Shown here: positions 5,376 to 62,359 of the stretch, in pieces | How the letters are laid out: every line of letters begins with the position of its first letter | Position numbering within the stretch: position 1 is the first letter of the stretch | Source: TPA_inf: Saccharomyces | Taxonomy: Eukaryota | Assembly (NCBI GenBank): GCA_000146045.2 | Contig: BK006940.2 | Span: forward strand, 96,001 to 160,000 | DNA length: 64,000 bases | Reading direction: 5' to 3' | The notes under the pieces: generated by a model | What the model was told of the DNA's origin: nothing | The model's input: only the letters and a program-made list of their open reading frames with translations | Databases searched by the model: none | Made by a program: the position numbers and the translations under genes

Positions 5376-5478
5376 GGGCGTGTGGTCTAGTGGTATGATT
5401 CTCGCTTTGGGCGACTTCCTGAATAAACAGGAAGACAAAGCATGCGAGAGGCCCTGGGTTCAATTCCCAGCTCGCCCC
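5376..5478 (+). tRNA. tP(UGG)F: tRNA-Pro (anticodon UGG) with a 31-nt intron, followed by a T7 RNA polymerase III terminator.
   Basis: gggcgtgtggtctagtggtatgattctcgctttggg[cgacttcctgaataaacaggaagacaaagca]tgcgagaggccctgggttcaattcccagctcgcccc. Removing the bracketed segment gives a 72-nt cloverleaf with A-box tggtctagtgg and B-box gggttcaattccc. The run ttttttt follows at 5481-5487. Confidence 0.9.
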
Positions 5479-30400: not shown

Positions 30401-33400
30401 GACGAGATAACTTTATCCATAAGCATTCTAGAAAGCCTTTCCGAATACTGTATTAACAACGTAGAAGAACTGATGAAAGCTCCAAGACATGATTCCGAAT
30501 ATGGCGATATGATACAAAAATATGTTTTAGTTATGACACATACGCTTTCCGGGTCAAGTTTACTTTTTGATCCAGATTTTAACAAATATAGGACGCAATC
30601 AAACTTATCATACAGAGAGAAACTGATTTTATTAAAGAATATACGCGAAAATAATTGTGACCCTCAAGAACTGGATATTGATATTGAACAAATTCGTTCT
30701 GGCAAGGATGATGAAGACTATATTGAGAGTAAGGACATTGAAGCAGGGCTGAATGCAGGAGTTTCCGATGTTGTGCAGTTAAGAGATGAGTTTCCGGATG
30801 AATTAATTGTTGATGAAGAAGTAGTGTCTGAGATGCCATCTGGTGTAAATACCCCTATCGCGGGGACGCATGGCACGGACAATTCAGCTATGAGTTCGGA
30901 TCTAGCTTTCAGGGATTTAGATATTTACACCTGTAATTATTACTTCGGAAATACCACTGAGGAGAAGTTACAAAACCCACAATATTTACAAGTCCACAGA
31001 GTTAGAGCGCGCATTGGACATTTCTTTCACAAACTCTATGTTTTTTTATCTACAAACTTCGAAAACAACACCAACATGTTCCAAATTCTATTGCACGGAT
31101 TGAAAGTTTGGTTCACAGATCTGGGACAAGAAACGGTCTTCAATGAAGACCCAAATGCCTTCATTGACGTTGATTTCCTAGAAAACGTTCAATCTCTCTC
31201 ACACGTAAATGAGCCCTTCACGAGAACCAATTTTGCAATCAGAGCAAACAGTTTGCACCAGAGTAGAGTTCTATTACATTCAACAAATAGAAAAGCTTCC
31301 AAGCTGGAAAACCTATTGTTAGTTGACATCATACAGTTAGCGACATCCCTTTATCCTGATATTTATAAACCAGCACAGGGAACTTTGGTACACTGTATGA
31401 AACAATTAGTTGGGTCATATGGCGTAGTCATCAATAAAATTATTCCATCATTAGAGAAAGCGATTAAGGATCATGATTATATGAAAATCCAAGTTATTTT
31501 AAATGTTTTGTTAATTAAGAAAATCCATAGGAAGCTTATGACGGATTATAAAGACATCGGCAGATTGATATTTCTGCTTATTGAATGTTGTCGTGTGAAT
31601 GAATTAGAGATTGGTATGTATGCAGATAAAATCTTAACTGACATAGTGATTGGGATCAAGATTCCTTCTAGTGTATGTGTCATTTCCGATCAAGCTTTCT
31701 TACCTTTAGCACCTCCTGATGGTACTATTAATTTGCAAGTTGAAGCGGTAAAGCTTGCCAAAAAGAAAAAGCGTGAGTACTACCTCTCTCTGTTAGTGGA
31801 TTTGCAGGACAAACTTTTAGACAAATTAGATAATGAAAAAGATATGGGGTGGAAGATAAGAATGTTCATTTTACGTTTTGTTACACAAATCCAATCGAAC
31901 CTCGAAAGCAAACCCGATAAAAGAGCAGTATTTTCAATAATCTCCCAAATCTCCACAAAACATCCCGAAATCATACATTTGGTTGTAAAGTCATTGTTGT
32001 CGACGTGCAACAAGATAATATCTCTCTCTGACTATGAATATGACATCACCAGGGCCTATAAGAATGAATTCAATCCATCATTTGTGGAAATACTGGACAC
32101 TTCGACCACAAGCTTCCCTAAAACGTTTACTGAAGAAATGAATAACTTTGATAACCCCAAGTATTTTATCGATTTGAGGGCGTATGTAGGGTGGCTATGT
32201 TGGGGAAGGCTTATGTACGTCATGTCGCCGAAAGCTTTAAAGCTCAATTTACGTGAGAATGAACTGGAAGTCCTCAAGACAGCTGGTCATCTATTGACAA
32301 GAGAATTCCTGAGAGATGTTACAATGAATTTAGTCCAAGATAATGAAACTAGGGGTGTTTTTAGTAGTGGTAACGTGTCATTTTTCTCTTTAGTAATCCT
32401 TTTGATATCATCTGGTTTCTGCGAACTGAATATGTCGGATCTCTTTGAGCTATGTGAATCCTACTATAACAAAGACGATAAGGCTTCGATGATCATGTCT
32501 GTCGAGATAGTGGCTGGCTTAGTTTGCGGGAGTAAGTTTATGTCAGTCTCTGACTTGGACAAACGTGACACTTTTATCGAAAACTTCCTAGCCAAATGTT
32601 TAGATTATGAGTTGAACCATGACGCATTTGAAATTTGGAGCACCTTGGCATGGTGGTTGCCTGCAGTCGTTGATTTAAGAAGGTCTAAAACTTTTTTTTG
32701 CCATTTTATCAACGCCGATGGCATGTTTGACCGTGAATCTGATGCAGCCACACATCAAACCTCCAAAATTTACATGCTAAGAAGTATCTTGATGAGCATG
32801 GAATTTAGAGCCCCAGATGTTGGTAAGCTATTTGATGAGTTGGTATTTGATCACCCATACGATCAGGTTCGCCAGGCTGTCGCTAAACTATTGACGACCT
32901 TAGTTCAAAATCAAAGTAATCCGTCAATTTCAGATCCAACCACATTATTAGAAGCAGAACGGAATGATCCAGATGGATTAGGGTTACCATTAAAAAGCGT
33001 CCCAGAAAAGGTGGATGCCTATATTAAGAAGCAGTTTGAGATCATTAAAAATCTGGAAGATTCCGTTGTCGGCCTGAATCCTCAACAATTTATTAAGACA
33101 GACTATTTTTACAGGACATCCACAATATTTTATTGGATCAAAGAAATGGCGAGAGGGCCTAATAAAGTTTTGTTAGTTCCATATTTAGTCGATTATGTTT
33201 TACCATTTCTGATCGGATTAGTGAAACATAAAGATGTTTGTGCTCTTGCCAGTTTAGATCCTGTTCGATTGTATGCCGGCTTGGGCTATATGCCGATCAG
33301 AAAGAACCATGTTGCCGCCATTGTTGACTATGTTTGTTCGTCAAATGTAGCACTATCTTCAAACCAAACGAAACTACAGCTAGCTTTCATCCAACACTTT

Positions 33401-33910
33401 TTATCAGCGGAACTGCTTCAACTTACTGAGGAAGAAAAGAACAAAATTTTGGAATTTGTTGTCAGCAATTTGTATAACGAACAGTTTGTAGAGGTGAGAG
33501 TTCGTGCGGCATCCATTTTGTCTGATATCGTCCATAACTGGAAAGAGGAACAGCCGTTGTTGAGTTTAATCGAGAGATTTGCAAAGGGTCTCGACGTCAA
33601 CAAATACACGTCGAAAGAAAGACAAAAGTTATCCAAAACGGATATCAAGATTCATGGTAACGTTTTGGGTTTGGGAGCTATTATATCAGCGTTCCCCTAT
33701 GTTTTTCCCCTACCGCCATGGATACCCAAGCAACTAAGCAACTTATCCTCGTGGGCCAGGACTAGTGGTATGACTGGACAAGCTGCCAAAAATACTATTA
33801 GTGAGTTCAAGAAGGTGAGGGCCGACACTTGGAAGTTCGATAGAGCATCTTTCAATACGGAGGAACTGGAAGACCTGGAGGGTGTCCTATGGAGAAGTTA
33901 CTATGCCTGA
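27467..33910 (+). CDS. BLM10: Proteasome activator Blm10 (PA200 homologue), a giant HEAT-repeat protein of 2147 aa.
   Basis: Size, alpha-solenoid composition and the C-terminal HbYX-type tail ...SYYA. This single ORF spans the former YFL006W and YFL007W. Confidence 0.9.
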   Translation: MLPPMTANNDDDIKSPIPITNKTLSQLKRFERSPGRPSSSQGEIKRKKSRLYAADGRPHSPLRARSATPTLQDQKLFNGMDSTSLLNERLQHYTLDYVSDRAQHMKNIYDPSSRWFSRSVRPEFPIEEFLPYKTESHEDQAKYLCHVLVNLYIAISSLDIQGLISISSKDLADLKKEVDDLALKTDLFRLSNNTAENDLLGNDIADYDDAEGLEDELDEYFDLAGPDFNATGKITAKSATIVNVNHWTNELKNCLHFDFPVALRKSLATVYYYLSLVQGQKVYRQMHVDMFERLVSLDDDRTNFTELLQKQGLLLDHQIMLNFLCEFLPYPDPDYARYELSSKEDLQLFRLLLKHAHNAKPFFDKSKESLLVDTMNFLLSSLAPSTMMAVMPIVTSVVPYHYHIHSKIIDYFPFCYSIWSSVSANVAIDTHMYDFVGSISKDVHNKILSSEHEKDVVGVEFGEFGIFTDDQMTFMFNRLQGHLRTDGQIHSYSRTVKPFVYAINGSKKDRFFEKLVSLAKAIETFIHPSNNGFWTKPNAKFVHAFIKSYHGRVKYEEDICARGVTNGICLTSFCHEEIVEIFLNIISLGSQNKNPDIANYYISCFAYLLELDPSNAYLIYDKILIDLYDTLADQFINSRHRIISSLKQFTRVIRFIVMDKLYRVHITNVLSMLVSKLDMNDTNLTSNLINGIVSIAAFIPIQDLTGEDDYISFESDTLPLVQQHFYHIKCGESSKTFRVDDELLNNAFKASTTVFQSMLKVYVEKIFQLVDVDLEDSLVTKINQTTMILQESMDDKIFNYFASLLQRNFWSNDSFKEKDPNYELVTIPLAALVRRNNGLSKELVRTLLFHIKEQIKRGAGSVRSTSEIQQRDVKLVLYLTALNDVLRQCHESLLEYSDELITFMKYLYDNVTNPPLDVITSIVIHSALATLCTTEITDCRLFPEDSKIPEKDRWGGLQFDPRRFDKQHLSFQWHVPSSDEITLSISILESLSEYCINNVEELMKAPRHDSEYGDMIQKYVLVMTHTLSGSSLLFDPDFNKYRTQSNLSYREKLILLKNIRENNCDPQELDIDIEQIRSGKDDEDYIESKDIEAGLNAGVSDVVQLRDEFPDELIVDEEVVSEMPSGVNTPIAGTHGTDNSAMSSDLAFRDLDIYTCNYYFGNTTEEKLQNPQYLQVHRVRARIGHFFHKLYVFLSTNFENNTNMFQILLHGLKVWFTDLGQETVFNEDPNAFIDVDFLENVQSLSHVNEPFTRTNFAIRANSLHQSRVLLHSTNRKASKLENLLLVDIIQLATSLYPDIYKPAQGTLVHCMKQLVGSYGVVINKIIPSLEKAIKDHDYMKIQVILNVLLIKKIHRKLMTDYKDIGRLIFLLIECCRVNELEIGMYADKILTDIVIGIKIPSSVCVISDQAFLPLAPPDGTINLQVEAVKLAKKKKREYYLSLLVDLQDKLLDKLDNEKDMGWKIRMFILRFVTQIQSNLESKPDKRAVFSIISQISTKHPEIIHLVVKSLLSTCNKIISLSDYEYDITRAYKNEFNPSFVEILDTSTTSFPKTFTEEMNNFDNPKYFIDLRAYVGWLCWGRLMYVMSPKALKLNLRENELEVLKTAGHLLTREFLRDVTMNLVQDNETRGVFSSGNVSFFSLVILLISSGFCELNMSDLFELCESYYNKDDKASMIMSVEIVAGLVCGSKFMSVSDLDKRDTFIENFLAKCLDYELNHDAFEIWSTLAWWLPAVVDLRRSKTFFCHFINADGMFDRESDAATHQTSKIYMLRSILMSMEFRAPDVGKLFDELVFDHPYDQVRQAVAKLLTTLVQNQSNPSISDPTTLLEAERNDPDGLGLPLKSVPEKVDAYIKKQFEIIKNLEDSVVGLNPQQFIKTDYFYRTSTIFYWIKEMARGPNKVLLVPYLVDYVLPFLIGLVKHKDVCALASLDPVRLYAGLGYMPIRKNHVAAIVDYVCSSNVALSSNQTKLQLAFIQHFLSAELLQLTEEEKNKILEFVVSNLYNEQFVEVRVRAASILSDIVHNWKEEQPLLSLIERFAKGLDVNKYTSKERQKLSKTDIKIHGNVLGLGAIISAFPYVFPLPPWIPKQLSNLSSWARTSGMTGQAAKNTISEFKKVRADTWKFDRASFNTEELEDLEGVLWRSYYA

Positions 33911-34333
33911 TTCATATTAGTATAGGATATTAAGCACATATCTAGACATATATGTACATCTAAACAAATAGCTGGAGCTATCTGCTGATTAGTTTTACTC
34001 TAAAAGTAAGTTGTTAGTGTAACTATGATCACGGCTGCGTGCCGGGTAATAAATCAATTTTGAGGAAAACTGGAAGTTCACCACTGAGAATGATCAACGG
34101 CAGGGAAACGTTATACCAAACAAAGCATTCTACCTCTAGGGAAGCTGGAAACTTGAATTACCCACTATAGCTTGTCTTTTAGTGATCCATTATTCCAACC
34201 TATTGCAATTCCAAGAAAATAAACTAGGAACTTTTTTTTTTGGAAGAATAAGAAAAGGAGAAAAAGTAGACATACTGTATATACACGAGGGCGTATCGTT
34301 CACCAGAAAGAATATAAACATAACAAGATAAAC

Positions 34334-34981
34334 ATGTCAGGCTTGAGAACTGTTTCTGCTTCATCCGGTAATGGAAAGAGCTATGACTCTATTATGAAAA
34401 TTTTATTGATTGGTGATTCTGGTGTTGGGAAATCATGTTTATTGGTTCGTTTTGTTGAAGACAAATTTAACCCGTCATTTATCACCACCATTGGTATTGA
34501 TTTCAAAATAAAGACTGTCGATATCAACGGTAAGAAGGTAAAGCTGCAACTTTGGGATACCGCTGGTCAAGAACGTTTCCGGACAATCACCACAGCGTAT
34601 TATCGTGGTGCTATGGGTATCATTCTTGTATATGATGTGACAGACGAGAGAACATTTACTAATATCAAGCAATGGTTTAAAACCGTTAATGAGCATGCGA
34701 ACGATGAAGCACAGCTACTGTTGGTTGGTAACAAGAGCGATATGGAGACGAGAGTGGTAACAGCTGATCAAGGTGAAGCCTTGGCTAAGGAGCTGGGTAT
34801 ACCATTCATCGAGTCCAGTGCTAAGAACGATGACAATGTCAACGAGATTTTTTTCACCTTGGCGAAGTTAATCCAAGAAAAAATCGACAGTAACAAGCTT
34901 GTTGGCGTCGGTAACGGTAAAGAGGGCAATATTAGCATCAATAGTGGGAGCGGAAACAGTTCTAAATCAAATTGCTGTTGA
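34334..34981 (+). CDS. SEC4: Rab-family GTPase for post-Golgi secretion, 215 aa.
   Basis: P-loop GDSGVGKS, effector region FITTIGIDF, switch [16 protein letters not shown], and the C-terminal CC geranylgeranylation site. Confidence 0.97.
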
Positions 34982-35809
34982 AGAAAAGAAGATTTTTGCT
35001 TCTTTGAGAATTAATCGTGAACTGGAATTAGAGCTATAAATCGCTTGATTCTTTTTTCCCTTTTTCTCAATATTCGCAGGTTATTTTTCCTTTATATATA
35101 TACATTGTTTGTATCTTTTTTTGATTACCATACTTACTATTTTTATATTAGTCATATTAGATGTCACTTTTATATTATCTAAACAATTCAAACTTCTCAC
35201 ACTAACTTTTTCAGCATACTTCTACTGTTGTTCTCTGCTCTGGAAGGTATTTTCATCAGGCGATTGGTAAAAAATCAAGAAAGAATCTAAAAAATAGTGC
35301 AACAGGAAAACGAGGTTCCCAGTTTCCCTGGGAATTCTTATCCAAGTATATATTTTACTTTTAAGATTCAGCACTTTTATTTCGTTCTAATGTTTTTACC
35401 GGTAGTAAAGTTTTGCTTCTTGAATCCACTATTCAACTACTTGCGCTTATGTAAGGTTCCTGTATGGTTGCATAATCACTCAATTCGAAAAAAAAACCCA
35501 CGTGCTGCTTGGAAATGAATCCGCACTGCGGTATAGCACTTCCAGAAAGATACTGACTGCGAAATTCGCTTTATGGAGTGTTTAAGCAATTGGTATCTTA
35601 CCCATTAAGAGTCATTTCTTTCTTCTTGCCAACTTTTTTCCATCCTATTATGACCTCAAAAAAGGCAGGCTCTCTTCGTCTTATCTTTTCTATCGGAAGC
35701 GAATTACTGGGAAAGAGGCATAGGTATAAACAGATAAAATAGACGAAAAGAGTTTAGAAAAAAAAGTAGAAAGAACGACTACACCTCAACATAACGACAC
35801 TTTTTTGAC

Positions 35810-38520: not shown

Positions 38521-41157
38521 TTATTCTTCAAAATTTTCGATGAAGTCGGAGTTTATTTCTTTTAATTTCCCTAAAGTCAAGGGCTCTTTTTCATTTCCTG
38601 CACATTCTTTCAATATCGCTACAAGATTGTGTATTCTCTTCATTTGGTTTATGGTCTTTTGATCAACAACGCCATTTGAATCTTCGTTTTCAGTCCTTGC
38701 TTTTGCAATTTTCAAAAGCGAATGGATATTGTACGCTTCTGCAATAATATCCGGGTTGAATATTTTTTTTACCACCCTTATTCCACTATTCTCTATTGCG
38801 ACAGATTTCTGGGTCAACTGATAATTCATTTTGACAGAATTGTCATTGAGAAGGACTGCATCCATATGAAGATGGGAAACTGCTGGCTTCTTAGACATTA
38901 TTTTAGGAATGTCCTGGAAGTGTGTAGAAAGAAATACCGTTGCCTCCGTTCGAAGTAAATGTTCAGTTACTGCCAAAGACACACAAAACCCATCAGCGAT
39001 GCTTGAACCACGACCAAGTTCATCTAAAATTAACAGTGTTTCTGTATTTATGTCATCTAAAAAGTAAGCCATTTCTTTCATTTCAAAACCAAAATTTGAT
39101 GAGGTTAATTCCATACTGTCATTGCAGACTCTTGCATGTAGACGTTTAAAGACAGGAAAAGACCCATAAAGTGCCGGTATACCTGATCCCATTTGGGCCA
39201 TTATGCAAATAAGGGCAACTTGTTTTAAATAAACAGATTTTCCACTCATGTTGCATCCGGTTATGATTTGTAAGCTGGAGCTATGTTTTGTACTTGATAT
39301 GGTGTTAGGGACAAAATTTTTTAGTACCTTTTCAAGTAGTGGGTGTCTTGAATCTCGAATTAGTAGATTGTTTGTAAAAATCGGTATTGTGTAATTATTT
39401 TCTTTCAAATTATATGTGAATGAACAAACCAAATCCAGGATAGCCACTGCTTCTGCAATCATAAATAGTTCAGAAATATGGGTTGCAATTTTATCGAGCA
39501 GTTCATCAACTGTCTCTTCACTTAAAAGTAAAATCTCTTCCATAACTTCCTTCAACCTCGCATTTTTTTTTATTATATTTAGGGTTGTACATTCAATATA
39601 ATTTTTTTTTATTGTTCTTGAAATGAATACGTCTGGAAGTGTAGCGACGTCATCGGTAAATTCCTGTCTTTTTATTCTGAGATAAAAGCCTCGTGCAGAA
39701 TCGTAATTATGATCTAAATTGATTTTGTTTTTAGCGGTAAGATCTTCTACCTCACGAAAAAATTCCTCTTTTACCTCTTTGTAGATTTGTCTAGAAACAT
39801 CCAAAAGCCCATTGGAATCACTTTTCACAGCATATGAACGTTGGTTAAGTAGTTGTATAGCTGAGGATGCCCAGACACAGTCTTCATTTATACAACTATT
39901 AATTAATTTTTCAATTTCCATAATTGCGTCATTATTGAATATTTTTTTGGTCTCGCTAATTAAACGGCTTTGAATTAACTGATCATTAAGTGCGTCTTTC
40001 AATGACTTCACGCTTTGTAAAGTTTCCTTTAGCAACAAAACGTAATTAATTCTTTGGTCAGGTTTTATTGCAGAATGATTAATGCATAATAACCTTGAAA
40101 ATAACTTATCTAGATCAGGCAATGATTTCATTTCTAGCCTTAATTTTTGTAGAAGGTCATCATTGGCTTTCAATTCTTCTAGGGCCTCTAGTCTCATTTC
40201 GATACTGCCCCTATCAGTTAATGGCTGCAGTATACTGTTCCGAAGTGATCTTTGTCCCATTTTAGTGGACGTGGTATCCAAGAACTTCCATAGTGATATG
40301 CCATTCTTATCCAATTTATTTTCTACAAGTTCTAAACCTCTGACGGTTTTAGAATCAATCAGCATTGTATTTTCTGTTCCTTCAAACTGTATACGTAGTT
40401 TTCGAAACGCATTCAAATTTCGGCTGCTTTTGGATATAATCTCTTCCATGTAGCTTATCGCAGCAGATGCAGCACAAAGAGCAAACGTTTTATCTATAAT
40501 CTCCTCGATTTTCAAGTCCTTTTTTGTATCATCCATTAAATACTTTGTAATCGCCGCCAGTCCATCTTGGCTATTGAAGCACTTTCGTGAACCCTCTTCA
40601 ATTTTAACTGTCTCGGCCACATTAAATTTTATCATTGTCGCTAATTTTGATACTGTTGGAGCTAGAGAACTGCTTGGAATCAGTATTTCCGTAGGTTGGT
40701 AAATTTGGAGTTTATGAACTACACGAATGTAAATTTGTGAATCCATGAAATCTGAAAGATACATCTGTCCCGTGTTACAGTTGATAATACATAACCCAAT
40801 CCGCGTACTTATGTCTCTTGGCACTTCGTATATGCAACAAAGAACACAGTCAATACTAGGACCGAGGAGTGAAGCGTTGGTGCTGTATCGACTTAAGGAG
40901 GTTGCGGTCCTAGAGGCCATTGATCCAGTCATTAAGTAATGGCTATGTGTTGAATCTTTTTCATTGTTTTCCCATGTTGTCTCTGCTATTTGTAGCGTTT
41001 TCTTTTTGAGAGCCCAACTACTTATGTTAGTTGGCGATTTTTGGTTCCTGATACTCTTTTTCGTACTTGGCTTCGAAATAGAGTTTGAAGAATTAGCCGC
41101 CGACCTTAAATTGAAATAATTTGTACTGATAAAACTAGATAGATTAGATTCACTCAT
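38521..41157 (-). CDS. MSH4: Meiosis-specific MutS homologue involved in crossover formation, 878 aa from the ATG at 41157. The ORF track's 890-aa version starts at an upstream TTG.
   Basis: MutS domains with Walker A GCNMSGKSVYLKQ, the motif ...TLLILDELGRGSS (ST-x-DG-x-A family), and a helix-turn-helix. Plus-strand 41191-41193 is caa, i.e. a TTG, whereas 41155-41157 is cat, i.e. an ATG. Confidence 0.93.
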   Translation of the reverse strand: MSESNLSSFISTNYFNLRSAANSSNSISKPSTKKSIRNQKSPTNISSWALKKKTLQIAETTWENNEKDSTHSHYLMTGSMASRTATSLSRYSTNASLLGPSIDCVLCCIYEVPRDISTRIGLCIINCNTGQMYLSDFMDSQIYIRVVHKLQIYQPTEILIPSSSLAPTVSKLATMIKFNVAETVKIEEGSRKCFNSQDGLAAITKYLMDDTKKDLKIEEIIDKTFALCAASAAISYMEEIISKSSRNLNAFRKLRIQFEGTENTMLIDSKTVRGLELVENKLDKNGISLWKFLDTTSTKMGQRSLRNSILQPLTDRGSIEMRLEALEELKANDDLLQKLRLEMKSLPDLDKLFSRLLCINHSAIKPDQRINYVLLLKETLQSVKSLKDALNDQLIQSRLISETKKIFNNDAIMEIEKLINSCINEDCVWASSAIQLLNQRSYAVKSDSNGLLDVSRQIYKEVKEEFFREVEDLTAKNKINLDHNYDSARGFYLRIKRQEFTDDVATLPDVFISRTIKKNYIECTTLNIIKKNARLKEVMEEILLLSEETVDELLDKIATHISELFMIAEAVAILDLVCSFTYNLKENNYTIPIFTNNLLIRDSRHPLLEKVLKNFVPNTISSTKHSSSLQIITGCNMSGKSVYLKQVALICIMAQMGSGIPALYGSFPVFKRLHARVCNDSMELTSSNFGFEMKEMAYFLDDINTETLLILDELGRGSSIADGFCVSLAVTEHLLRTEATVFLSTHFQDIPKIMSKKPAVSHLHMDAVLLNDNSVKMNYQLTQKSVAIENSGIRVVKKIFNPDIIAEAYNIHSLLKIAKARTENEDSNGVVDQKTINQMKRIHNLVAILKECAGNEKEPLTLGKLKEINSDFIENFEE
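40037..40047 (-). promoter_or_regulatory. 10/11 ACS match (AATTACGTTTT on the minus strand) inside the MSH4 ORF. It is a candidate core of ARS605, the origin known to lie within MSH4.
   Basis: Plus strand aaaacgtaatt. The position, roughly the centre of MSH4, agrees with my recollection that ARS605 is intragenic. I cannot verify the exact ACS. Confidence 0.25.
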
Positions 41158-41485
41158 TGCATATAGTTTGCGTTGATCAGCTACAGATTTCAATGCTATA
41201 ACTAGTTATTTTTATATGTTTCACTTTAAGTAAAATCCAACTGCTCTTTTGCTATTCTTCGTTGATGCCTTATATGTATGAAAGCTGTACGTTCGGGATT
41301 TGAAAAGGAAATGAAGACGCGAATTAAAAAAAAATAATAAACTGGTTCATAGCAGAAAAGAGGAGACTAAATAAGATTTTGCTCTCATACAGATGCAACA
41401 CATAAAAACTTTAATCGATTTCAGTATGGAAAAAGATATGATACAATAAAATCTAAATCTTAGAAACTGATTTTGAATAAAAAAA

Positions 41486-41559
41486 CGACCCCAGTGAGGG
41501 TTGAACTCACGATCTTGCGATTAACAGTCGCACGCCTTAACCAACTTGGCCATGGAGTC
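41486..41559 (-). tRNA. tN(GUU)F: tRNA-Asn (anticodon GUU), 74 nt, no intron.
   Basis: The reverse complement is gactccatggccaagttggttaaggcgtgcgactGTTaatcgcaagatcgtgagttcaaccctcactggggtcg, with B-box gagttcaaccc. Confidence 0.93.
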
Positions 41560-42203
41560 AGTCACTTTTGAGTTCTGCAACTCTTAAAACGGAATAGACT
41601 ACGTAAAACAATGTCATCCCATACCAAAACAATCCTGATTTCTCAAAGGCATCGCAAACCTCTGGAATAAAAATCCACTATCATCTATCAACTAATAGTT
41701 ATTCAATATATTATCATATACAGTGTTAGATGATGACATAAGTTATGAGAAGCTGTCATCGAAGTTAGAAGAAGCTGAAATGCAAGGATTGATAATGTAA
41801 TAGGATAATGAAACATATAAAACGGAATAGTCTAACATTAGTATGTAGAAATATGGATTCCATTTTGAGAATTCCTAAATCCTCGAGGAGAACTTCTAGC
41901 ATATTCTGTATATGTTGGAATAAAAATCAACTATCATCTACTAACTAGTATTTACGTTACTAGTATATTATCATATACGGTGTTAGAAGATGACGCAAAT
42001 GATGAGAAATAGTCATCTAAATTAGTGGAAGCTGAAACGCAAGGATTGATAATGTAATAGGATCAATGAATATTAACATATAAAATGATGATAATAATAT
42101 TTATAGAATTGTGTAGAATTGCAGATTCCCTTTTATGGATTCCTAAATCCTCGAGGAGAACTTCTAGTATATCTACATACCTAATATTATTGCCTTATCA
42201 AAA

Positions 42204-43520
42204 ATGGAATCCCAACAATTACATCAAAATCCACATTCTCTACATGGTAGCGCCTATGCTTCGGTTACTTCTAAGGAAGTCCCATCAAATCAAGATCCGT
42301 TAGCCGTTTCAGCTTCCAATTTACCGGAATTTGATAGAGATTCCACTAAGGTTAATTCTCAACAAGAGACAACACCTGGGACATCAGCTGTTCCAGAGAA
42401 CCATCATCATGTCTCTCCTCAACCTGCTTCAGTACCACCTCCACAGAATGGACAGTACCAACAGCACGGCATGATGACCCCAAACAAAGCTATGGCCTCT
42501 AACTGGGCACATTACCAACAACCGTCTATGATGACGTGTTCACATTATCAAACGTCACCTGCGTATTATCAACCGGACCCACACTATCCGTTGCCACAGT
42601 ATATCCCACCACTGAGTACTTCCTCACCTGATCCAATCGATTCACAGAATCAACACTCTGAAGTACCTCAAGCTGAGACAAAGGTGAGAAATAACGTCTT
42701 ACCACCACACACTTTAACATCAGAAGAAAACTTTTCTACATGGGTTAAATTTTACATCAGATTTTTGAAGAACTCTAATCTCGGTGACATCATTCCAAAT
42801 GACCAGGGTGAAATCAAAAGTCAAATGACTTATGAAGAACATGCGTATATATACAATACCTTCCAAGCATTTGCCCCATTTCATTTATTGCCAACATGGG
42901 TAAAACAAATTTTAGAAATTAATTATGCTGACATCCTTACAGTCCTTTGTAAAAGTGTGTCCAAAATGCAAACTAACAATCAAGAATTAAAGGATTGGAT
43001 AGCTCTTGCCAACCTTGAGTACGACGGAAGTACATCTGCTGATACATTTGAAATTACAGTCAGTACGATCATTCAGAGGCTAAAAGAAAACAATATCAAT
43101 GTTAGCGACAGATTGGCCTGTCAACTAATACTTAAAGGTCTATCCGGTGACTTCAAATACCTACGTAATCAATATCGTACCAAAACGAACATGAAACTTT
43201 CCCAATTATTCGCTGAAATTCAGTTAATATATGACGAAAATAAAATCATGAATCTAAATAAACCGTCCCAATACAAACAACACAGCGAATACAAAAATGT
43301 TTCTCGCACATCTCCAAACACGACTAACACAAAGGTTACAACTCGTAATTATCATAGAACAAATAGTTCAAAACCAAGAGCAGCAAAAGCTCACAATATT
43401 GCTACATCTAGTAAATTCTCAAGGGTGAACAATGATCACATTAATGAATCAACCGTTTCATCACAATACTTAAGCGATGACAACGAACTTAGTCTTAGGC
43501 CAGCAACAGAAAGAATCTAA
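42204..43520 (+). CDS. TYA: Ty2 TYA (Gag) ORF, 438 aa, starting inside the 5' LTR.
   Basis: [36 protein letters not shown]... is a Ty1/2 Gag. Confidence 0.9.
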
Positions 43521-46500
43521 GCCAACACACACAATAGACTCGAATGACGAACTACCTGATCACCTTCTTATTGATTCAGGAGCTTCGCAAACGCTTGTCA
43601 GATCAGCCCATTATTTACACCATGCAACACCCAATTCTGAAATAAACATAGTCGATGCTCAAAAACAAGACATTCCTATAAATGCCATTGGTAATCTTCA
43701 CTTCAACTTTCAGAACGGCACCAAAACATCAATAAAAGCACTACACACACCAAACATAGCCTATGATCTATTAAGTTTGAGTGAGCTGGCTAATCAAAAT
43801 ATTACTGCCTGCTTTACCAGAAACACTTTAGAAAGATCGGATGGTACAGTACTAGCTCCCATAGTCAAACATGGAGACTTTTACTGGTTATCTAAAAAAT
43901 ACCTAATTCCTTCGCACATTTCAAAGCTAACAATAAACAACGTCAACAAAAGCAAAAGCGTAAATAAATATCCATATCCGTTAATACATCGAATGCTTGG
44001 ACATGCTAACTTCCGAAGTATTCAGAAGTCTCTTAAGAAGAATGCAGTTACATATTTGAAGGAATCGGATATTGAATGGTCTAACGCTAGCACATATCAA
44101 TGTCCTGACTGTCTAATCGGCAAAAGCACGAAACATAGACATGTCAAAGGATCACGACTAAAGTACCAAGAATCATATGAGCCTTTTCAGTACTTGCACA
44201 CCGATATATTTGGTCCTGTACATCACTTACCGAAAAGTGCACCTTCTTACTTTATATCGTTTACAGATGAGAAAACCAGATTCCAATGGGTGTACCCATT
44301 ACACGACCGTCGTGAAGAATCTATCCTCAATGTTTTTACATCGATATTAGCATTTATTAAGAACCAATTCAATGCTCGCGTTCTAGTTATCCAGATGGAT
44401 CGTGGCTCCGAGTACACTAACAAAACTCTTCATAAGTTCTTTACGAACAGAGGTATTACTGCATGCTATACAACCACGGCAGATTCTAGAGCACACGGTG
44501 TCGCTGAACGATTAAATCGTACTTTATTAAACGATTGTCGCACACTGCTTCATTGCAGTGGTCTACCAAATCATCTATGGTTCTCAGCAGTCGAATTTTC
44601 TACTATAATCAGAAATTCATTAGTCTCACCAAAAAACGATAAATCTGCAAGACAACATGCAGGTTTAGCTGGACTGGACATTACTACTATACTACCTTTC
44701 GGTCAACCGGTTATAGTTAACAACCATAATCCCGACTCGAAAATACATCCTCGTGGCATTCCAGGTTACGCCTTACATCCGTCACGAAACTCTTATGGCT
44801 ATATTATCTATCTTCCATCATTAAAAAAGACAGTAGATACTACCAATTACGTTATATTACAAGACAAGCAATCCAAATTGGACCAATTCAATTATGATAC
44901 ACTCACCTTTGATGATGATCTCAATCGTTTAACAGCCCATAACCAATCTTTTATTGAACAAAATGAAACGGAGCAGTCATATGATCAAAATACAGAATCT
45001 GATCATGACTATCAATCGGAGATTGAAATAAACTCTGATCCTCTAGTGAACGACTTCTCGTCCCAATCAATAAACCCTTTACAATTAGACAAGGAACCAG
45101 TCCAAAAAGTACGTGCACCAAAAGAAGTTGATGCCGACATATCTGAATACAATATTCTTCCATCTACTATACGATCTCGTACACCCCATATCATTAATAA
45201 AGAGAGTACCGAAATGGGTGGTACCGTTGAATCAGATACTACTTCACCTAGACACTCGTCTACCTTCACTGCACGAAACCAAAACCGACCTGGTAGTACC
45301 AATGAGATGATTGATTTGACCTCACAGGATAGAGTTAATTATGGACTTGAAAACATCAAAACTACACGTTTGGGTGGTACGGAGGAACCATATATTCAAC
45401 GAAATAGTGATACAAATATCAAATACAGGACTACAAATAGTACGCCCTCAATAGATGACCGTTCGTCCAACAGTGAATCCACTACTCCCATCATCTCCAT
45501 AGAAACAAAGGCTGTATGTGATAATACACCCTCCATTGATACGGATCCGCCAGAATATCGATCTTCTGACCATGCGACTCCTAATATAATGCCTGACAAA
45601 TCCTCAAAAAATGTTACGGCTGATTCTATTCTTGACGACCTCCCACTTCCTGACTTAACCCATAAATCTCCTACGGACACTTCTGATGTTTCAAAAGATA
45701 TTCCACACATACACTCTCGTCAGACTAATTCCAGTTTGGGTGGTATGGATGATTCTAATGTTCTGACTACTACCAAAAGTAAGAAAAGATCATTAGAAGA
45801 TAATGAAACTGAAATTGAGGTATCCCGAGACACATGGAATAATAAGAATATGAGAAGTCTGGAACCACCAAGATCGAAGAAACGCATAAATTTAATTGCA
45901 GCAATAAAAGGAGTGAAATCGATCAAACCAGTTCGAACGACCTTAAGATATGATGAAGCAATTACATATAATAAAGACAACAAAGAAAAAGACAGATATG
46001 TTGAAGCTTATCATAAAGAAATTAGCCAACTATTGAAAATGAACACTTGGGATACAAACAAATATTATGATAGAAATGACATAGATCCTAAAAAAGTAAT
46101 AAACTCAATGTTTATATTTAACAAGAAACGTGATGGTACACACAAAGCTAGATTTGTTGCAAGAGGCGACATTCAACACCCCGATACATATGATTCTGAT
46201 ATGCAATCCAATACCGTACATCACTATGCACTGATGACGTCACTGTCAATCGCATTAGACAACGACTATTATATCACACAGCTGGACATATCCTCTGCTT
46301 ACTTATATGCTGATATCAAAGAAGAATTATACATAAGACCTCCACCACATTTAGGTTTGAATGATAAATTACTACGTTTGAGAAAATCACTCTATGGTTT
46401 GAAACAAAGTGGTGCAAACTGGTATGAAACCATTAAATCATATTTAATAAATTGTTGCGACATGCAAGAAGTTCGCGGATGGTCATGCGTATTTAAGAAT

Positions 46501-47517
46501 AGTCAAGTAACAATTTGCTTATTCGTTGATGATATGATATTATTCAGCAAAGACTTAAATGCAAATAAGAAAATCATAACAACACTCAAGAAACAATACG
46601 ATACAAAGATAATAAATCTGGGTGAAAGTGATAACGAAATTCAGTACGACATACTTGGATTAGAGATCAAATATCAAAGAAGCAAGTACATGAAATTAGG
46701 TATGGAAAAATCCTTGACAGAAAAATTACCCAAACTAAACGTACCTTTGAACCCAAAAGGAAAGAAACTTAGAGCTCCAGGTCAACCAGGTCATTATATA
46801 GACCAGGATGAACTAGAAATAGATGAAGATGAATACAAAGAGAAAGTACATGAAATGCAAAAGTTGATTGGTCTAGCTTCATATGTTGGATATAAATTTA
46901 GATTTGACTTACTATACTACATCAACACACTTGCTCAACATATACTATTCCCCTCTAGGCAAGTTTTAGACATGACATATGAGTTAATACAATTCATGTG
47001 GGACACTAGAGATAAACAATTAATATGGCACAAAAACAAACCTACCAAGCCAGATAATAAACTAGTCGCAATAAGCGATGCTTCATATGGTAACCAACCA
47101 TATTACAAGTCACAAATTGGTAACATTTTCCTACTCAACGGAAAAGTGATTGGAGGAAAGTCGACAAAGGCTTCGTTAACATGCACTTCAACTACAGAAG
47201 CAGAAATACACGCAGTCAGTGAAGCTATTCCGCTATTGAATAACCTCAGTCACCTTGTGCAAGAACTTAACAAGAAACCAATTATTAAAGGCTTACTTAC
47301 TGATAGTAGATCAACGATCAGTATAATTAAGTCTACAAATGAAGAGAAATTTAGAAACAGATTTTTTGGCACAAAGGCAATGAGACTTAGAGATGAAGTA
47401 TCAGGTAATAATTTATACGTATACTACATCGAGACCAAGAAGAACATTGCTGATGTGATGACAAAACCTCTTCCGATAAAAACATTTAAACTATTAACTA
47501 ACAAATGGATTCATTAG
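43501..47517 (+). CDS. TYB: Ty2 TYB (Pol) frame, expressed as a TYA-TYB fusion by a +1 ribosomal frameshift at CTTAGGC (43494-43500). Domain order is protease, integrase, reverse transcriptase, RNase H.
   Basis: Protease active site [11 protein letters not shown]. Integrase HHCC zinc finger ([13 protein letters not shown]...CPDC) and DDE core. Reverse-transcriptase motif [10 protein letters not shown]. The heptamer CTT-AGG-C is in frame with TYA: 43494-42204 = 1290, which is 430 codons. Confidence 0.9.
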
Positions 47518-48515
47518 ATCTATTACATTATGGGTGGTATGTTGGAATAAAAATCAACTATCATCTACTAACTAGTATTTACGTTACTAGTATATTATCA
47601 TATACGGTGTTAGAAGATGACGCAAATGATGAGAAATAGTCATCTAAATTAGTGGAAGCTGAAACGCAAGGATTGATAATGTAATAGGATCAATGAATAT
47701 TAACATATAAAATGATGATAATAATATTTATAGAATTGTGTAGAATTGCAGATTCCCTTTTATGGATTCCTAAATCCTCGAGGAGAACTTCTAGTATATC
47801 TACATACCTAATATTATTGCCTTATCAAAAATGGAATCCCAACAATTACATCAAAATCCACATTCTCTACAGTATACATATTATTATAGCCTTAATCAAC
47901 AATGGAATCCCAACAATTATCTCAAAATTCACCAATATCTCAGAGACTATATCTGAAACAAACAAAGACGTATAGTCCAAAGCAATATTCAAGGAAACTA
48001 CAAAGTGAGATTAGCTACGTAGAAATAGGAGAAAAAGTATAAATTTAAAGTTAAATTCAGATCTCAAATTCTCTTAATATTTGAAATAAATCCGCTGCGT
48101 GACAAATCCCGTGATGATCTCGGAATATTTATATGTTACCATTTATACTTATGGTAGAATTATACTCACTAATGAATGTACGGTTACTATTTGGAACAAG
48201 TGGTCATCAATTGCCATAGTAACATTTTGAATGCTTGCATCGTGCATGAATACATACCGCATATATGTTTAAGTATGAATATACCTGTTAAAGAAAGTAA
48301 TGAATCTGTATTGAAGAACCGTAGGTTTGACATGATCTGGTCGTTATATATACGCGTAATATGACTAGTCAAACTAAATGTATGACAAGTTCCAGAACTA
48401 CTATTACATTGATCATAAGTAATAATACACAAATCAGCGTGTGTTTTATACTTCTCTTATATAGTATAAGAAGATCCATATTTAATCTTCATTAACACTA
48501 CTTCTTAACCTCTAA

Positions 48516-48860
48516 TTACCAACGGGTCAATGTTAGGATAATTGTTGGCATTCCATTGTTATTAAAGGGAATCAAAGTATATTAAAAATTCTTCCCAAGG
48601 ATGTAATAACCTAAAAAAGGAAGCCCATATTTCTATATAATGTTATTAATATTTTCTTTTTCATATTATTGTCGCCACTCTTTATTCCATTACATTATCA
48701 AGTCTTGCATTTCGGCTTCCATTAAATTTGATGATTATTTCTCAGTCTTTGTGCCATCTACTCACACTCAATTTTAATATAGTGTTAATATGAATACTAA
48801 TCAATGAGCGATCATTGGTTCCATTACAATAACGTTGTGATCGGAACTTATTTTGAAGTT
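48516..48860 (-). mobile_element. Diverged solo LTR (delta- or tau-like), about 345 bp, minus orientation, immediately right of the Ty2 and delta composite.
   Basis: The reverse complement gives ...gattagtattcatattaacactatatta...ttaatggaagccgaaatgcaagacttgataatgtaatggaat...aacaatggaatgccaacaattatcctaacattgacccgttggtaa. This is collinear with the delta blocks tagtggaagctgaaacgcaaggattgataatgtaatagga and aacaatggaatcccaacaattatctcaacattcaccc. I am unsure of the family and of the exact boundaries. Confidence 0.5.
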
Positions 48861-49113: not shown

Positions 49114-50934
49114 TTATAAGTCGTCAAAATTGCCTTGGATAGCTTTGCTGGAAACTTTCTTCCGTTTATTCTGTAAAACGATTTCTTTCCAATCCTCTTT
49201 AATACGCTCTTCTTCAGCATTTTCATCGAGCTCTTCTGCTTTCAATTCTTCCTCTATAGCCTTCCTTTTTAAACTCATCTTTTCCTTTCTCTCGAGTTTC
49301 CGTTCTTTCGTCAATGTTTTATCTGACCACGCTAAATTCTTCTTCTTCAACTCACTTTTCAGCTTCTTTTTATCATTAATCAGGCTTATATTTTTTAATG
49401 TTTCTTGTCTCTCCTTTTCACGTTTTTTGTCCTTGTATTTATATTCATCCATATTAACTGGGGGATCGACCAACCAATTCCCTGGGAAAATCCCTTCTTG
49501 TTTTTCGGTGGCTAAGTACTTTGTTATCTCAGGCATTCTAGGCAGGCGGAAAAGACCATACAATTTCGCAATACCAACATAATCTAAAGATTGAAGCCTA
49601 AAAATTGAAGTTGCGGAATGATTTGAGTAGTATTTAATAAAGGCAACATATGCTTTAACACCTTTATCAAATCTATCCCTATCTTCTAGTATCCAATTTC
49701 TAAAGTCCTCGTAAAAGTTTGTTGTTATGCCCTTTACTTCCAAATCAAGTTCTTCAAGTTCCACATTTTTAACTTGCATGAAAGGAATAAAATCCTCTTC
49801 TCTGCCTTCATTAAGAAACGTAATTGCTTTACCCACTCTATTTGCTCTACCAGTTCTACCACATCTATGCATGAACATATCAGTATTGGTAGGGGGATCA
49901 AGCTGGATGACGAGATCAACGTCGGGTATGTCAATACCTCTAGCAGCCACATCTGTTGTGAATAAAACAGAATTACTTAGCGAATCAGTAAAAGCTGTTA
50001 GAGTTTTTGTCCTTGCCGATGTTTGAAGTTTTCCATGCAAGGAAAATATTTCTACTTCATTCACGAGAATATTCCTCTTTCCCAAATACTGGATAAATGA
50101 GTAGAAGTAGGAGACTGACACACATGTTGGAAAATATACAATACATTTCTTGAATTTGTAGTTATTCAAAATGCTAACCAAAAGTTGTAGTTTTTCGGCA
50201 GGATTTACGACACAGTAATTTAATTTCAAAGAGGAGGGCGCCTGGTTCTTAGAGTTAACGGTAATCCTGACAGGATTTCTAAGCCCTGTCTTAAAGATAT
50301 CTGATCCGGCGCTACGCATAGTTGCAGAAAATAGACCCGTCCTTCTTTGTTTAGGCAATAGCCTCAGAATTTTTTCGGTATCCTTAATAAAACTCATATC
50401 CAACAATCTGTCTGCTTCATCCATAACTACCATACTGCATGCTGACGTCTTTACTGCTGGCATTTGTAAAAAGTCCAAAACTCTACCAGGTGTTCCAATC
50501 AGAATCTGCGGTCTATTCCGCAGAAAATTACTTACATCATCTCTAACTGTGGCTTCATTAGTACCAACCAGGAGCTGACATTTAATAGGGAACAAGTCGG
50601 AAGGATAATGTTCCAGAAATGATAGAACGACAGACTCAATTTGGCGTGACAATTCTCTTGTTGGAGCAATAATTAACGAGTGGAAGTGTGCTTTCTTGAA
50701 TTTTGATGTATTCGCTTCTTCCTTTACAACTTTTTCTAGTACAGGTATAACAAACGCAGCGGTCTTACCTGAGCCTGTTACAGAATCAACTACTACATCC
50801 TTGTTGCCAGCAAGCATGGGAATTGTCGATGCTTGGACTGGAGTCATGGTCTCAAAACCCATAACATCGAGTCCTGTCCTTATCCAGGGAAGTAAAGAAA
50901 ACCCGAGATTATCCCATTCCAATGACTTTGACAT
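49114..50934 (-). CDS. SPB4: Nucleolar DEAD-box ATP-dependent RNA helicase for 60S ribosome biogenesis, 606 aa.
   Basis: Q motif TPVQ, Walker A GSGKT ([10 protein letters not shown]), DEAD (VMDEAD), [11 protein letters not shown], and a basic coiled-coil C-terminal tail. Confidence 0.95.
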
Positions 50935-51130: not shown

Positions 51131-52459
51131 ATGAGTAATTTCATTAGAAGGCTAGTTGGGAAAATGAAAGCGATTTCAACAGGTACCAATGCTATTGTTA
51201 GTAAGAAGGACTCCATTTACGCAAACTGGTCCAAAGAGCAGCTAATACGAAGGATCACTGAACTAGAAAACGCAAATAAGCCACATTCTGAAAAATTCCA
51301 GCACATCGAGGATAACAAAAAGCGCAAAATTTCGCAAGAAGAGGTTACGAGAAGCAAGGCGAAAAAGGCTCCGAAGAAGTTTGACTTTTCTAAACATAAT
51401 ACCAGGTTCATCGCCTTGAGATTTGCCTATTTGGGATGGAATTACAATGGCTTAGCTGTTCAGAAGGAATACACACCGTTGCCTACAGTAGAGGGTACCA
51501 TTTTGGAGGCCATGAATAAGTGTAAACTTGTTCCCTCGATGGTTTTACAAGACTATAAATTTAGCAGATGTGGCAGAACAGACAAGGGAGTTAGCGCCAT
51601 GAACCAAGTTATATCGTTAGAAGTCCGTTCCAATTTAACAGATGAGGAACAGCGGGATCCGACCAACGACAGCAGGGAAATACCCTATGTTCACGTTTTA
51701 AATCAATTACTACCCGACGATATTCGTATATCAGCTGTCTGCCTCAGACCGCCACCTAACTTTGACGCAAGATTCAGCTGTGTTCACCGGCACTATAAGT
51801 ACATCTTTAATGGAAAAAACCTTAATATTGAAAAAATGTCTAAAGCCGCATCATATTTTGTTGGAGAGAGAGACTTCAGGAATTTTTGTAAGCTTGATGG
51901 CTCAAAACAAATTACCAATTTTAAACGAACAATAATAAGCTCAAAAATTCTTCCCCTTTCTGAAACTTTCTATTGTTTTGATCTCGTTGGTTCAGCATTC
52001 CTATGGCACCAAGTTCGTTGCATGATGGCCATTCTTTTCTTAGTTGGTCAATCACTTGAAGTGCCGGAAATTGTCTTGCGTCTGACTGATATTGAGAAAA
52101 CCCCTCAAAGGCCTGTTTACGAAATGGCAAATGATATACCATTATTGTTATATGATTGTAAATTTCCTGAAATGGATTGGCAAGAACCTACTGTAGATGA
52201 CTATAAGGCAATAAAATTCACGACAGCTACTGAAGCATTGACGTTACACTACGAACTTAAGGCCGCAGTATGCAATATTTTTAAAGATGTTTTGCCCACA
52301 GCAAATACAAACAACTTCTCAAAGACAATTATTAATTTGGGCGATGGAAGAGGTAAAGTAGTCGGTACCTATGTGAAACTAGAGGATAGAAGCGTTATGG
52401 AACCTGTCGAAGTTGTTAATGCTAAATACTCCAAGAAAAAGAACAACAAAAATAAGTAA
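51131..52459 (+). CDS. DEG1: tRNA pseudouridine synthase (Pus3; psi38/39), TruA family, 442 aa.
   Basis: TruA-family fold with the catalytic RCGRTDKGVSA motif. It ends 50 bp from CDEI of the centromere. Confidence 0.93.
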   Translation: MSNFIRRLVGKMKAISTGTNAIVSKKDSIYANWSKEQLIRRITELENANKPHSEKFQHIEDNKKRKISQEEVTRSKAKKAPKKFDFSKHNTRFIALRFAYLGWNYNGLAVQKEYTPLPTVEGTILEAMNKCKLVPSMVLQDYKFSRCGRTDKGVSAMNQVISLEVRSNLTDEEQRDPTNDSREIPYVHVLNQLLPDDIRISAVCLRPPPNFDARFSCVHRHYKYIFNGKNLNIEKMSKAASYFVGERDFRNFCKLDGSKQITNFKRTIISSKILPLSETFYCFDLVGSAFLWHQVRCMMAILFLVGQSLEVPEIVLRLTDIEKTPQRPVYEMANDIPLLLYDCKFPEMDWQEPTVDDYKAIKFTTATEALTLHYELKAAVCNIFKDVLPTANTNNFSKTIINLGDGRGKVVGTYVKLEDRSVMEPVEVVNAKYSKKKNNKNK

Positions 52460-52509: not shown

Positions 52510-52627
52510 ATCACGTGCTATAAAAATAATTATAATTTAAATTTTTTAATATAAATATATAAATTAAAAATAGAAAGTAAAAAAAGAAATTAAAGAAAAA
52601 ATAGTTTTTGTTTTCCGAAGATGTAAA
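52510..52627. other. CEN6: Point centromere CEN6. CDEI is ATCACGTG (52510-52517). CDEII is 85 bp of more than 90% A+T (52518-52602). CDEIII is agtttttgttttCCGAAgatgtaaaa (52603-52627).
   Basis: The tripartite structure is read directly: a Cbf1 site, an A/T-rich spacer of canonical length, and the CBF3 site with its invariant CCG core. It lies between DEG1 and LOC1, as in the reference. Confidence 0.93.
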
Positions 52628-61915: not shown

Positions 61916-62007
61916 TGCGAATTCTGTGGATCGAACACAGGACCTCCAGATAACTTGACCGAAGTTTTTTCTTCAGTCTGGCGCTCTCCCAACTGAGCTA
62001 AATCCGC
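61916..62007 (-). tRNA. tF(GAA)F: tRNA-Phe (anticodon GAA) with a 19-nt intron, 92 nt.
   Basis: The reverse complement is gcggatttagctcagttgggagagcgccagactGAAga[aaaaacttcggtcaagtta]tctggaggtcctgtgttcgatccacagaattcgca. This is the classic yeast tRNA-Phe exon sequence interrupted 3' of the anticodon. Confidence 0.93.
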
Positions 62008-62359
62008 TTCTATTTATGAAAAATTCATTGTTACAGGAACTATAGGACTATAATAACTAGCTGCTAACACCTTTAAATGTGACTTTTCTCATAAGGAAAT
62101 CTAGCGATTCAGAATTCGAGAATTTTGCAGATTGCAAAGTTTTCTTTTTACCATAATATTTGAGAATGTTGTAAAACTTGAGATAATTATTCGGATGTCA
62201 TTGTTGATTGAAGATAGCATTCCTATGAGTCGCCCTCGAGGACTTGGATCGAAAAATCTACATAATATTAGTAATTACTATTATTGTTGGAATTGGATAA
62301 ACCGTCGTCCACCTATTTGAGAAATAGGTAATTATTATATGAGTTATTTGGTTCCTTTT

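Follow-up and report, generated by a model that had tools for sequence, protein, structure and literature searches.

We analyzed a window of 64,000 nucleotides from chromosome VI of Saccharomyces cerevisiae strain S288C (assembly GCA_000146045.2, contig BK006940.2, positions 96,001 to 160,000 of the forward strand), which contains a complete retrotransposon of the Ty2 family inside an older solo long terminal repeat (LTR), or delta, located upstream of the tRNA-Asn gene tN(GUU)F. We are close to certain that this element is YFLWTy2-1, that its integrase inserted it at the sequence GTATA within the fixed delta YFLWdelta2, and that the insertion is both recent and polymorphic; the sequence contains nothing that speaks against this interpretation. 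The finding is already known in all respects, because the nesting, the active-clade status and the polymorphism of the element were published in 2012 by Carr, Bensasson and Bergman (PMC3511429). All positions given below are those of the window, and correspond to the chromosome VI coordinate (sacCer2) minus 95995, an offset that is constant.

Results

The Ty2 element occupies 5959 bp (41913-47871, plus strand) and is bounded by a 5' LTR (41913-42244, plus strand, 332 bp, TGTTGG...CTCTACA) and a 3' LTR (47540-47871, plus strand, 332 bp, TG...CA). An earlier prediction, made from the letters of the sequence and hereafter called the original prediction, had described the two 332-bp LTRs as identical and had proposed their pairwise alignment as a check; this alignment gave 332 identical positions out of 332, with 0 mismatches. 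The perfect 5-bp target-site duplication that it had reported was likewise found, with a left copy of GTATA at 41908-41912 and a right copy at 47872-47876, and we estimate that, in DNA this rich in A+T, 5 bp would match by chance with a probability of about 0.002. The strings at which the old delta and the Ty2 LTR meet are CTAGCATATTCTGTATA|TGTTGGAATAAAAATC at the left junction and ATCCACATTCTCTACA|GTATACATATTATTATAGC at the right junction.

The host delta is present in two parts. The 5' part of YFLWdelta2 (41660-41912, plus strand, 253 bp) is a Ty1-type LTR sequence that contains the target GTATA and is colinear with LTR positions 1 to ~265, and in the 3' part (47877-47942, plus strand, 66 bp) the LTR alignment resumes exactly where the 5' part ends. 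When rejoined, the two pieces make up 319 bp, which align end-to-end with the Ty2 LTR at 85% identity over the aligned bases and with 25 gap columns; in this alignment the join lies between adjacent LTR positions. Moreover, the reconstructed 319-bp delta is 100% identical to an uninterrupted delta in two loci of other strains, L001 and L023. Measured from the 5' end of the tRNA gene, the old delta begins 100 bp upstream and the Ty2 itself 353 bp upstream, so that the distance of about 100 bp given in the original prediction applies to the old delta and not to the Ty2 proper. YFLWdelta2 is not itself flanked by a matching 5-bp duplication, as its flanks, CAAAC and GAGAC, agree at 3 of 5 positions. 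Decayed flanks are expected for an old insertion, and they may also reflect that YFLWdelta2 is a recombinant, since a tandem of delta 1-77 followed by delta 4-319 is found in many strains.

The original prediction had proposed that the site be compared between assemblies, and we carried out this comparison using contigs with exact matches to the SPB4 and MSH4 proteins, the products of the genes on either side of the Ty cluster. Besides D50617.1, the GenBank record of S288C chromosome VI, the look-up, which covers distinct gene neighbourhoods from the longest contigs, yielded 17 loci that belong to 16 other assemblies. This Ty2 insertion was present in 0 of the 17 loci from other strains, including strains that share an identical MSH4 or SPB4 with S288C. 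In 12 of them (L001-L005, L008, L014, L015, L017 and L021-L023) we found the exact unoccupied junction ...CTAGCATATTCTGTATA|CATATTATTATAG... with one GTATA: the exact string ...TCCTCGAGGAGAACTTCTAGCATATTCTGTATA|CATATTATTATAGCC..., in which GTATA occurs once, is found in L001-L005 and L008, and the 33-nt empty junction in L014, L015, L017 and L021-L023; the empty site reads CTAGCATATTCTGTATACATATTATTATAGCCT. As to the remaining loci, a 6-kb insertion is ruled out by alignment or by locus length in L009, L018 and L020, the delta is intact only in a duplicated copy in L007, and the site is deleted in L006. The interval between MSH4 and SPB4 measures 1989-1993 bp in L001-L005 and L023, versus 7956 bp in the window, and the difference between L001 and the window is 5964 bp, that is, the 5959 bp of the Ty2 plus 5 bp.

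Since the exact empty junction with one GTATA exists in other strains, the Ty2 entered a pre-existing LTR and duplicated 5 bp of it. Thus, the nested insertion that had been claimed is borne out both by the colinearity of the two halves with an LTR and by the continuous delta with its single GTATA elsewhere; it is directly demonstrated, and not merely inferred. The continuous delta in other strains also rules out that the two pieces are unrelated fragments. The whole 7956-bp interval between MSH4 and SPB4 is identical in the window and in D50617.1, a clone-based record from 1995, and this identity rules out an assembly artefact. The L010 locus as a whole differs from the window, with an identical Ty2 interval.

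With respect to the identity of the element, its 438-aa and 1770-aa products are, residue for residue, those annotated in UniProt/RefSeq for S288C as "Transposon Ty2-F Gag polyprotein" and "Gag-Pol polyprotein", and the element is therefore YFLWTy2-1. In addition, the LTR in the window is identical to the published 5' LTR of chrVI_i7+_TY2, a member of the Ty2-active alignment. The gag, pol and LTR sequences are of the Ty2 type rather than the Ty1 type, and a length of 5959 bp is shared with YBLWTy2-1 and YCLWTy2-1. In the survey of Carr et al., in which S288C has 13 full-length Ty2 copies, chrVI_i7+_TY2 is YFLWTy2-1, located at chrVI:137908-143866 and listed as "REannotate_1-nested", full-length, of the active clade and polymorphic, and its host chrVI_st74+_TY1 is YFLWdelta2 (137658-137907 plus 143867-143937), a solo, inactive LTR fixed in 30 of 30 strains (PMC3511429, Files S2/S3). 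The element in the window and YFLWTy2-1 in YFLWdelta2, as known from SGD and from that survey, are the same object: proteins, LTR, interval, coordinates and the "1-nested" flag all agree, with no difference. A full-text literature search for "YFLWTy2-1" returned no paper, the name occurring in the supplementary files of the same survey (PMC3511429).

Comparison with other elements places YFLWTy2-1 in a wider context. The same architecture is listed on chromosome II for YBLWTy2-1 in YBLWdelta6, a 5959-bp Ty2 (29641-35599) enclosed by a fixed solo Ty1 LTR (29501-35793) (PMC3511429). According to this published listing, YBLWTy2-1 is also scored as active and polymorphic, and it differs from YFLWTy2-1 in its locus and in its LTR variant. 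[quoted passage not shown] Unlike Ty1, YFLWTy2-1 has a Gag of 438 aa, a Gag-Pol of 1770 aa and an LTR of 332 bp that falls in the Ty2 clade.

The internal part of the element contains all the features that had been described as intact. The primer-binding site TGGTAGCGCC (42245-42254, plus strand), at which the minus strand is primed, lies immediately 3' of the 5' LTR; from what is established for Ty1 and Ty2, we take its primer to be the initiator tRNA-Met. The polypurine tract GGGTGGTA (47532-47539, plus strand) abuts the 3' LTR. A second exact copy of GGGTGGTA is located in the part of the element that encodes integrase (45738-45745, plus strand), and a repeat search aligned 45717-45747 with 47511-47541. 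Ty1 has an internal plus-strand primer site, PPT2, which the internal copy resembles, and this copy is hence a candidate central plus-strand primer site. The TYA (gag) open reading frame (ORF; 42204-43520, plus strand, 438 aa) starts within the 5' LTR and has no internal stop, and the TYB (pol) frame (43477-47517, plus strand) runs uninterrupted for 1346 codons and covers protease, integrase, reverse transcriptase and RNase H. We take TYA and TYB to be the genes named YFL002W-A and YFL002W-B, respectively, in SGD. The frameshift heptamer CTTAGGC (+1; 43494-43500, plus strand), of which this is the sole occurrence in the element, is located in the 44-nt overlap between the two frames. Skipping of the A at 43497 gives a TYA-TYB fusion of 1770 aa that ends at the TAG at 47515-47517, and TYB would be expressed in this way, as a Gag-Pol protein made by +1 frameshifting. 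Stops or frameshifts in either gene, which the original prediction had named as evidence against an intact copy, were sought by translation and none was found.

The encoded proteins also have the expected domains. Pfam matches on the Ty2 proteins are TYA at 17-396 (E = 6e-202), Pol_BBD at 455-532, gag_pre-integrs at 583-641, rve at 659-759 and RVT_2 at 1296-1470, an order of protease barrel, pre-integrase zinc region, integrase core and reverse transcriptase that is of the copia type. The catalytic motifs of Gag-Pol are intact (DSG 457-459, HHCC 595-636, D,D35E with D667 and E768, and FVDD 1440-1443). The combination of TG...CA LTRs with a 5-bp duplication, a primer-binding site, a polypurine tract, and gag followed by protease, integrase and reverse transcriptase/RNase H is that of the Ty1/copia-type elements (Pseudoviridae), and a single CTTAGGC in a short TYA/TYB overlap, with an open +1 reading, is that of the Ty1/Ty2 group. 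Towards its C-terminus, the integrase has KKR at 1193-1195 and at 1225-1227, a 29-aa linker between them, and KNMRSL at 1214-1219.

A copy very similar to YFLWTy2-1 is located on another chromosome. The published 5' LTR of chrVII_u15+_TY2 (YGRWTy2-2) is identical to the LTR in the window at 332 of 332 positions. The two share the variants ..TTATCAAAAATGG.. and ..CTCTACA, and are the only pair with both among the LTRs in the part of the published alignment that we used, in which the chrXII_u23 LTR differs at both variants and the chrX_st135 LTR at one. Identical 438-aa Gag and 1770-aa Gag-Pol proteins are also annotated on a contig of 1,090,940 bp, which we presume to be chromosome VII. When the exact TYA and 1346-aa TYB sequences were looked up, the only matches were D50617.1 and one 6.2-kb metagenome contig. 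YGRWTy2-2 differs from YFLWTy2-1 in its chromosomal site, and the likeness between them is one of 5' LTR and proteins; judged from other entries, the prefix "u" in the naming of Carr et al. appears to mark elements that are not nested. Based on the identical 5' LTR, the shared variants and the identical proteins, YFLWTy2-1 and YGRWTy2-2, its nearest relative, are probably sister copies, or parent and daughter.

The original prediction had further claimed that this landing pad has been used repeatedly. In agreement with this, independent Ty insertions are present elsewhere in the same delta in L006, L008 and L014, and a tau and a second delta are located beyond it. In L014 (GCA_029990745.1; L014:7670-10000, reverse strand) a solo LTR in inverted orientation, which is 98% identical to the Ty2 LTR and has its own duplication CTAAC at delta positions 173-177, occupies intergenic positions 680-1012 in the orientation of the window. 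In L006 (GCA_029991225.1; L006:11822-14378, reverse strand; intergenic positions 677-1385) a forward Ty2 LTR, the first 80 bp of which are identical to the window LTR, follows delta position 174 and is itself split by an inverted tau-like (Ty4) LTR that has a duplication GAAGA and is 75% identical to YFLWtau1, which makes this a three-level nest. Delta positions 175-253 are missing from L006, which suggests a later recombination between LTRs. L008 has an extra full-length solo delta. These independent insertions into the same delta directly support reuse of the landing pad.

The Ty cluster varies in other ways as well. In L008, L017, L018, L020, L021 and L022 the place of the single 319-bp delta of S288C is taken by the tandem of delta 1-77 and delta 4-319; recombination may have produced the solo delta of S288C, or the strains with the tandem may carry an extra partial LTR. 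L007/L016 (GCA_030036215.2) contains, at intergenic positions 704-4554, an inverted and truncated Ty1-like element that is ~85% identical to the 3' 2.2 kb of the Ty2 and adjoins a second copy of the tRNA-Asn gene and the old delta, an arrangement that is a local duplication or rearrangement at the same site. To the right of the nest, the solo tau YFLWtau1, a Ty4 LTR, occupies 48205-48523 (plus strand; coordinates 144200-144518 in PMC3511429) in the same cluster, and is present at 98-100% identity in all other-strain loci examined. It is followed by YFLCdelta6 (48539-48820, minus strand; 144534-144815 in PMC3511429), a degenerate solo delta in the opposite orientation, which is ~68% identical to the Ty2 LTR on the reverse strand and gives inverted-repeat matches to it. 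To the left of the nest, a 26-nt stretch between the tRNA gene and the old delta (41576-41601, plus strand) matches a segment of the old delta (41809-41834) at 81% identity, and could derive from an even older LTR fragment or have arisen by chance.

The tRNA gene next to the cluster, tN(GUU)F, is located at 41486-41559 on the minus strand, where it scores 65.1 bits with the Rfam tRNA model; ARAGORN gives tRNA-Asn with anticodon GTT at 41485-41560. Its T-run terminator, on the gene strand, corresponds to the plus-strand A run at 41479-41485, and its 5' end points toward the Ty cluster, so that tRNA gene and Ty2, on the minus and plus strands, respectively, are divergently transcribed, as had been claimed. 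Rfam identified two further tRNA genes, both containing introns, at 61916-62007 (minus strand) and 5376-5478 (plus strand), which by sequence are tRNA-Phe(GAA) and tRNA-Pro(UGG), respectively. Run on the whole window, ARAGORN reported tRNA-Asn alone and overlooked both intron-containing genes, and its count is therefore unusable for this eukaryotic window. Solo deltas are listed upstream of both of these genes: YFRWdelta7 at ~62359-62671 and YFLWdelta1 at ~4580-4907 (PMC3511429).

The translations of the flanking ORFs are exact matches to S288C: MSH4 at 38524-41157 (minus strand), SPB4 at 49117-50934 (minus strand) and DEG1 at 51131-52456 (plus strand). Further out, we take the genes on the left to be BLM10, SEC4 and VTC2, and those on the right to be LOC1 and NIC96, as recognised from their translations. 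The sequence pattern of CEN6 is located between DEG1 and LOC1 (52510-52619, plus strand), with CDEI ATCACGTG, a CDEII of 93% A+T and a CDEIII ...TTCCGAA; the end of the Ty2 lies ~4.6 kb to the left of it. Between SEC4 and VTC2, the Rfam model RUF20 (RNA of unknown function 20) is matched over its full length (35061-35503, minus strand, 455.8 bits). In the BLM10 region, D50617.1 has two genes, of 254 aa and at least 1804 aa (L019 17248-22637), versus one ORF of 2143 aa in the window (27467-33910). This difference indicates that, relative to D50617.1, the window is a later, corrected reference sequence.

Discussion

The 5-bp duplication and the complete LTRs demonstrate that the Ty2 entered by an integrase-type insertion, and it did so within the zone upstream of a Pol III gene. 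This zone is defined by tN(GUU)F, and the insertion falls in its nucleosomal region, 353 bp upstream of the 5' end of the tRNA gene. In the case of Ty1, it has been shown that integrase residues 617-622 (KNMRSL), in the 29-aa linker between the two KKR motifs of the bipartite nuclear-localisation signal, bind the Pol III subunit AC40, and that they are both necessary and sufficient to target integration upstream of tRNA genes; the motif is reported to be conserved in the integrases of Ty2 and Ty4 (PMC7459421; PMC10050235). The C-terminus of the Ty2 integrase is also reported to bind AC40 by two-hybrid (cited in PMC7459421). Almost certainly, Ty2 cDNA was inserted by its own integrase into the older, fixed YFLWdelta2: GTATA was cut in a staggered manner, 349-353 bp upstream of the tRNA gene, and repair of the cut duplicated 5 bp and split the delta into pieces of 253 bp and 66 bp. 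By analogy with Ty1, the KNMRSL motif would bind AC40 and thereby tether the integrase to Pol III; such a tether, by which we infer that the site was chosen, would direct integration to the nucleosomes upstream of tRNA genes, and would explain why remnants of Ty1, Ty2 and Ty4 have piled up here.

The available data indicate that the insertion is recent and polymorphic. In line with the claim of a recent copy, there are 0 differences between the LTRs, the insertion is found at 0 of the 17 other-strain loci, and a copy with an identical 5' LTR exists on chromosome VII; it is on these three grounds that we consider its origin to be recent. The identity of the LTRs by itself gives a loose bound: two LTRs of 332 bp without a difference correspond to an age of at most ~1-3 x 10^7 generations, if mutations arise at 1.67-3.3e-10 per base per generation. 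We also infer that YFLWTy2-1 is competent for transposition, because its sequence is intact, with promoter-bearing LTRs, primer-binding site, polypurine tract, frameshift site and open gag and pol genes with intact catalytic motifs, and because it has an identical sister copy.

Several considerations weigh against parts of this interpretation. Tethering by AC40 has been demonstrated for Ty1, and for Ty2 it is suggested by a reported interaction together with the conservation of the motif. Intact ORFs are compatible with a subtle defect or with repression by the host, and the nearby tRNA gene could dampen the LTR promoter (tRNA-gene-mediated silencing). Identity between LTRs can also arise by gene conversion, either between the two LTRs or with another copy. 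Finally, YFLWTy2-1 has been scored as present in 19 of 27 low-coverage strains of the Saccharomyces Genome Resequencing Project (SGRP), including SK1, RM11-1a and Y55, which is a frequency of 0.70 (PMC3511429) and would make the insertion older and commoner than 0 of 17 suggests. The SGRP sample and our 17 loci are different samples, and in the SGRP calls, which come from low-coverage alignments, further Ty insertions in this delta may have been mistaken for YFLWTy2-1.

Taken together, the last two considerations amount to an alternative in which the insertion is old and common and its LTRs have been homogenised by gene conversion. On the one hand, this would account for the 19 of 27 SGRP strains, it fits with the at least 19 recombination events detected among the 13 full-length Ty2 copies (PMC3511429), and it is compatible with the age bound given above, since zero differences in 664 bp limit the age only to ~1-3 x 10^7 generations. 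On the other hand, the insertion is absent from all 17 loci of the other assemblies, some with an MSH4 or SPB4 identical to that of S288C; the copy on chromosome VII agrees fully in its 5' LTR and in its 1770-aa Gag-Pol; the Ty2 family as a whole is a recent arrival of very low diversity (PMC3511429); and different Ty insertions in the same delta could be scored as "present" in low-coverage alignments. We therefore consider an old, common insertion unlikely. Another alternative concerns the route by which the Ty2 arrived, which could have been homologous recombination or gene conversion of Ty cDNA, or of a genomic Ty, with a resident delta or Ty. Recombination is a known alternative route for Ty cDNA (PMC7459421), it has been reported among Ty2 copies (PMC3511429), and L006, in which the match to the Ty2 LTR and the 3' part of the old delta overlap and positions 175-253 are missing, possibly contains a recombinant between a Ty2 LTR and the old delta. 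However, recombination would give neither non-chimeric LTRs, nor a new duplication, nor a clean split. Both Ty2 LTRs are complete, identical, non-chimeric and only ~85% like the host delta, the perfect 5-bp duplication is new, GTATA being single-copy in the empty alleles, and the host delta is broken once, without loss of sequence, so that entry by recombination is disfavoured to the point of being barely credible. We thus maintain that the Ty2 was inserted by integrase, and recently.

The competence of the element is a separate matter, as YFLWTy2-1 could be intact in sequence and nevertheless no autonomous active copy, either because it is silenced or because it carries a disabling missense change. 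An active Pol III gene is 353 bp away from its 5' LTR, and Ty2 transposes less often than Ty1 in laboratory strains, which also speaks for this possibility. It is countered by the canonical state of the catalytic motifs, the nuclear-localisation signal, the primer-binding site, the polypurine tract and the frameshift site, by the identical protein set at a second locus, which implies recent copying of one of the pair, and by the placement of the element in the active clade (PMC3511429). An inactive copy therefore seems improbable to us, although clearly less so than an old insertion, and YFLWTy2-1 is probably able to transpose.

As a discovery the nest described here is small, but it offers a textbook example of the anatomy of an LTR retrotransposon and of the stacking of Ty elements in the safe zone upstream of tRNA genes. 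The insertions in other strains raise the possibility, which we advance tentatively although we find it nearly as probable as its opposite, that the 319-bp delta is a recurrent, strain-variable hotspot that has received at least three independent hits of the Ty1/Ty2 type (at position 253 in S288C, in L014 and in L006). In view of such repeated hits on one delta, the published value of 0.70 may be too high. If this is true, the S288C insertion would be all but confined to the laboratory lineage, and the value of 0.70 would conflate different insertions in the same delta. The locus could thus serve for the study of fine-scale site choice by Ty elements, and it would call for caution with presence/absence calls that are made from low-coverage data.

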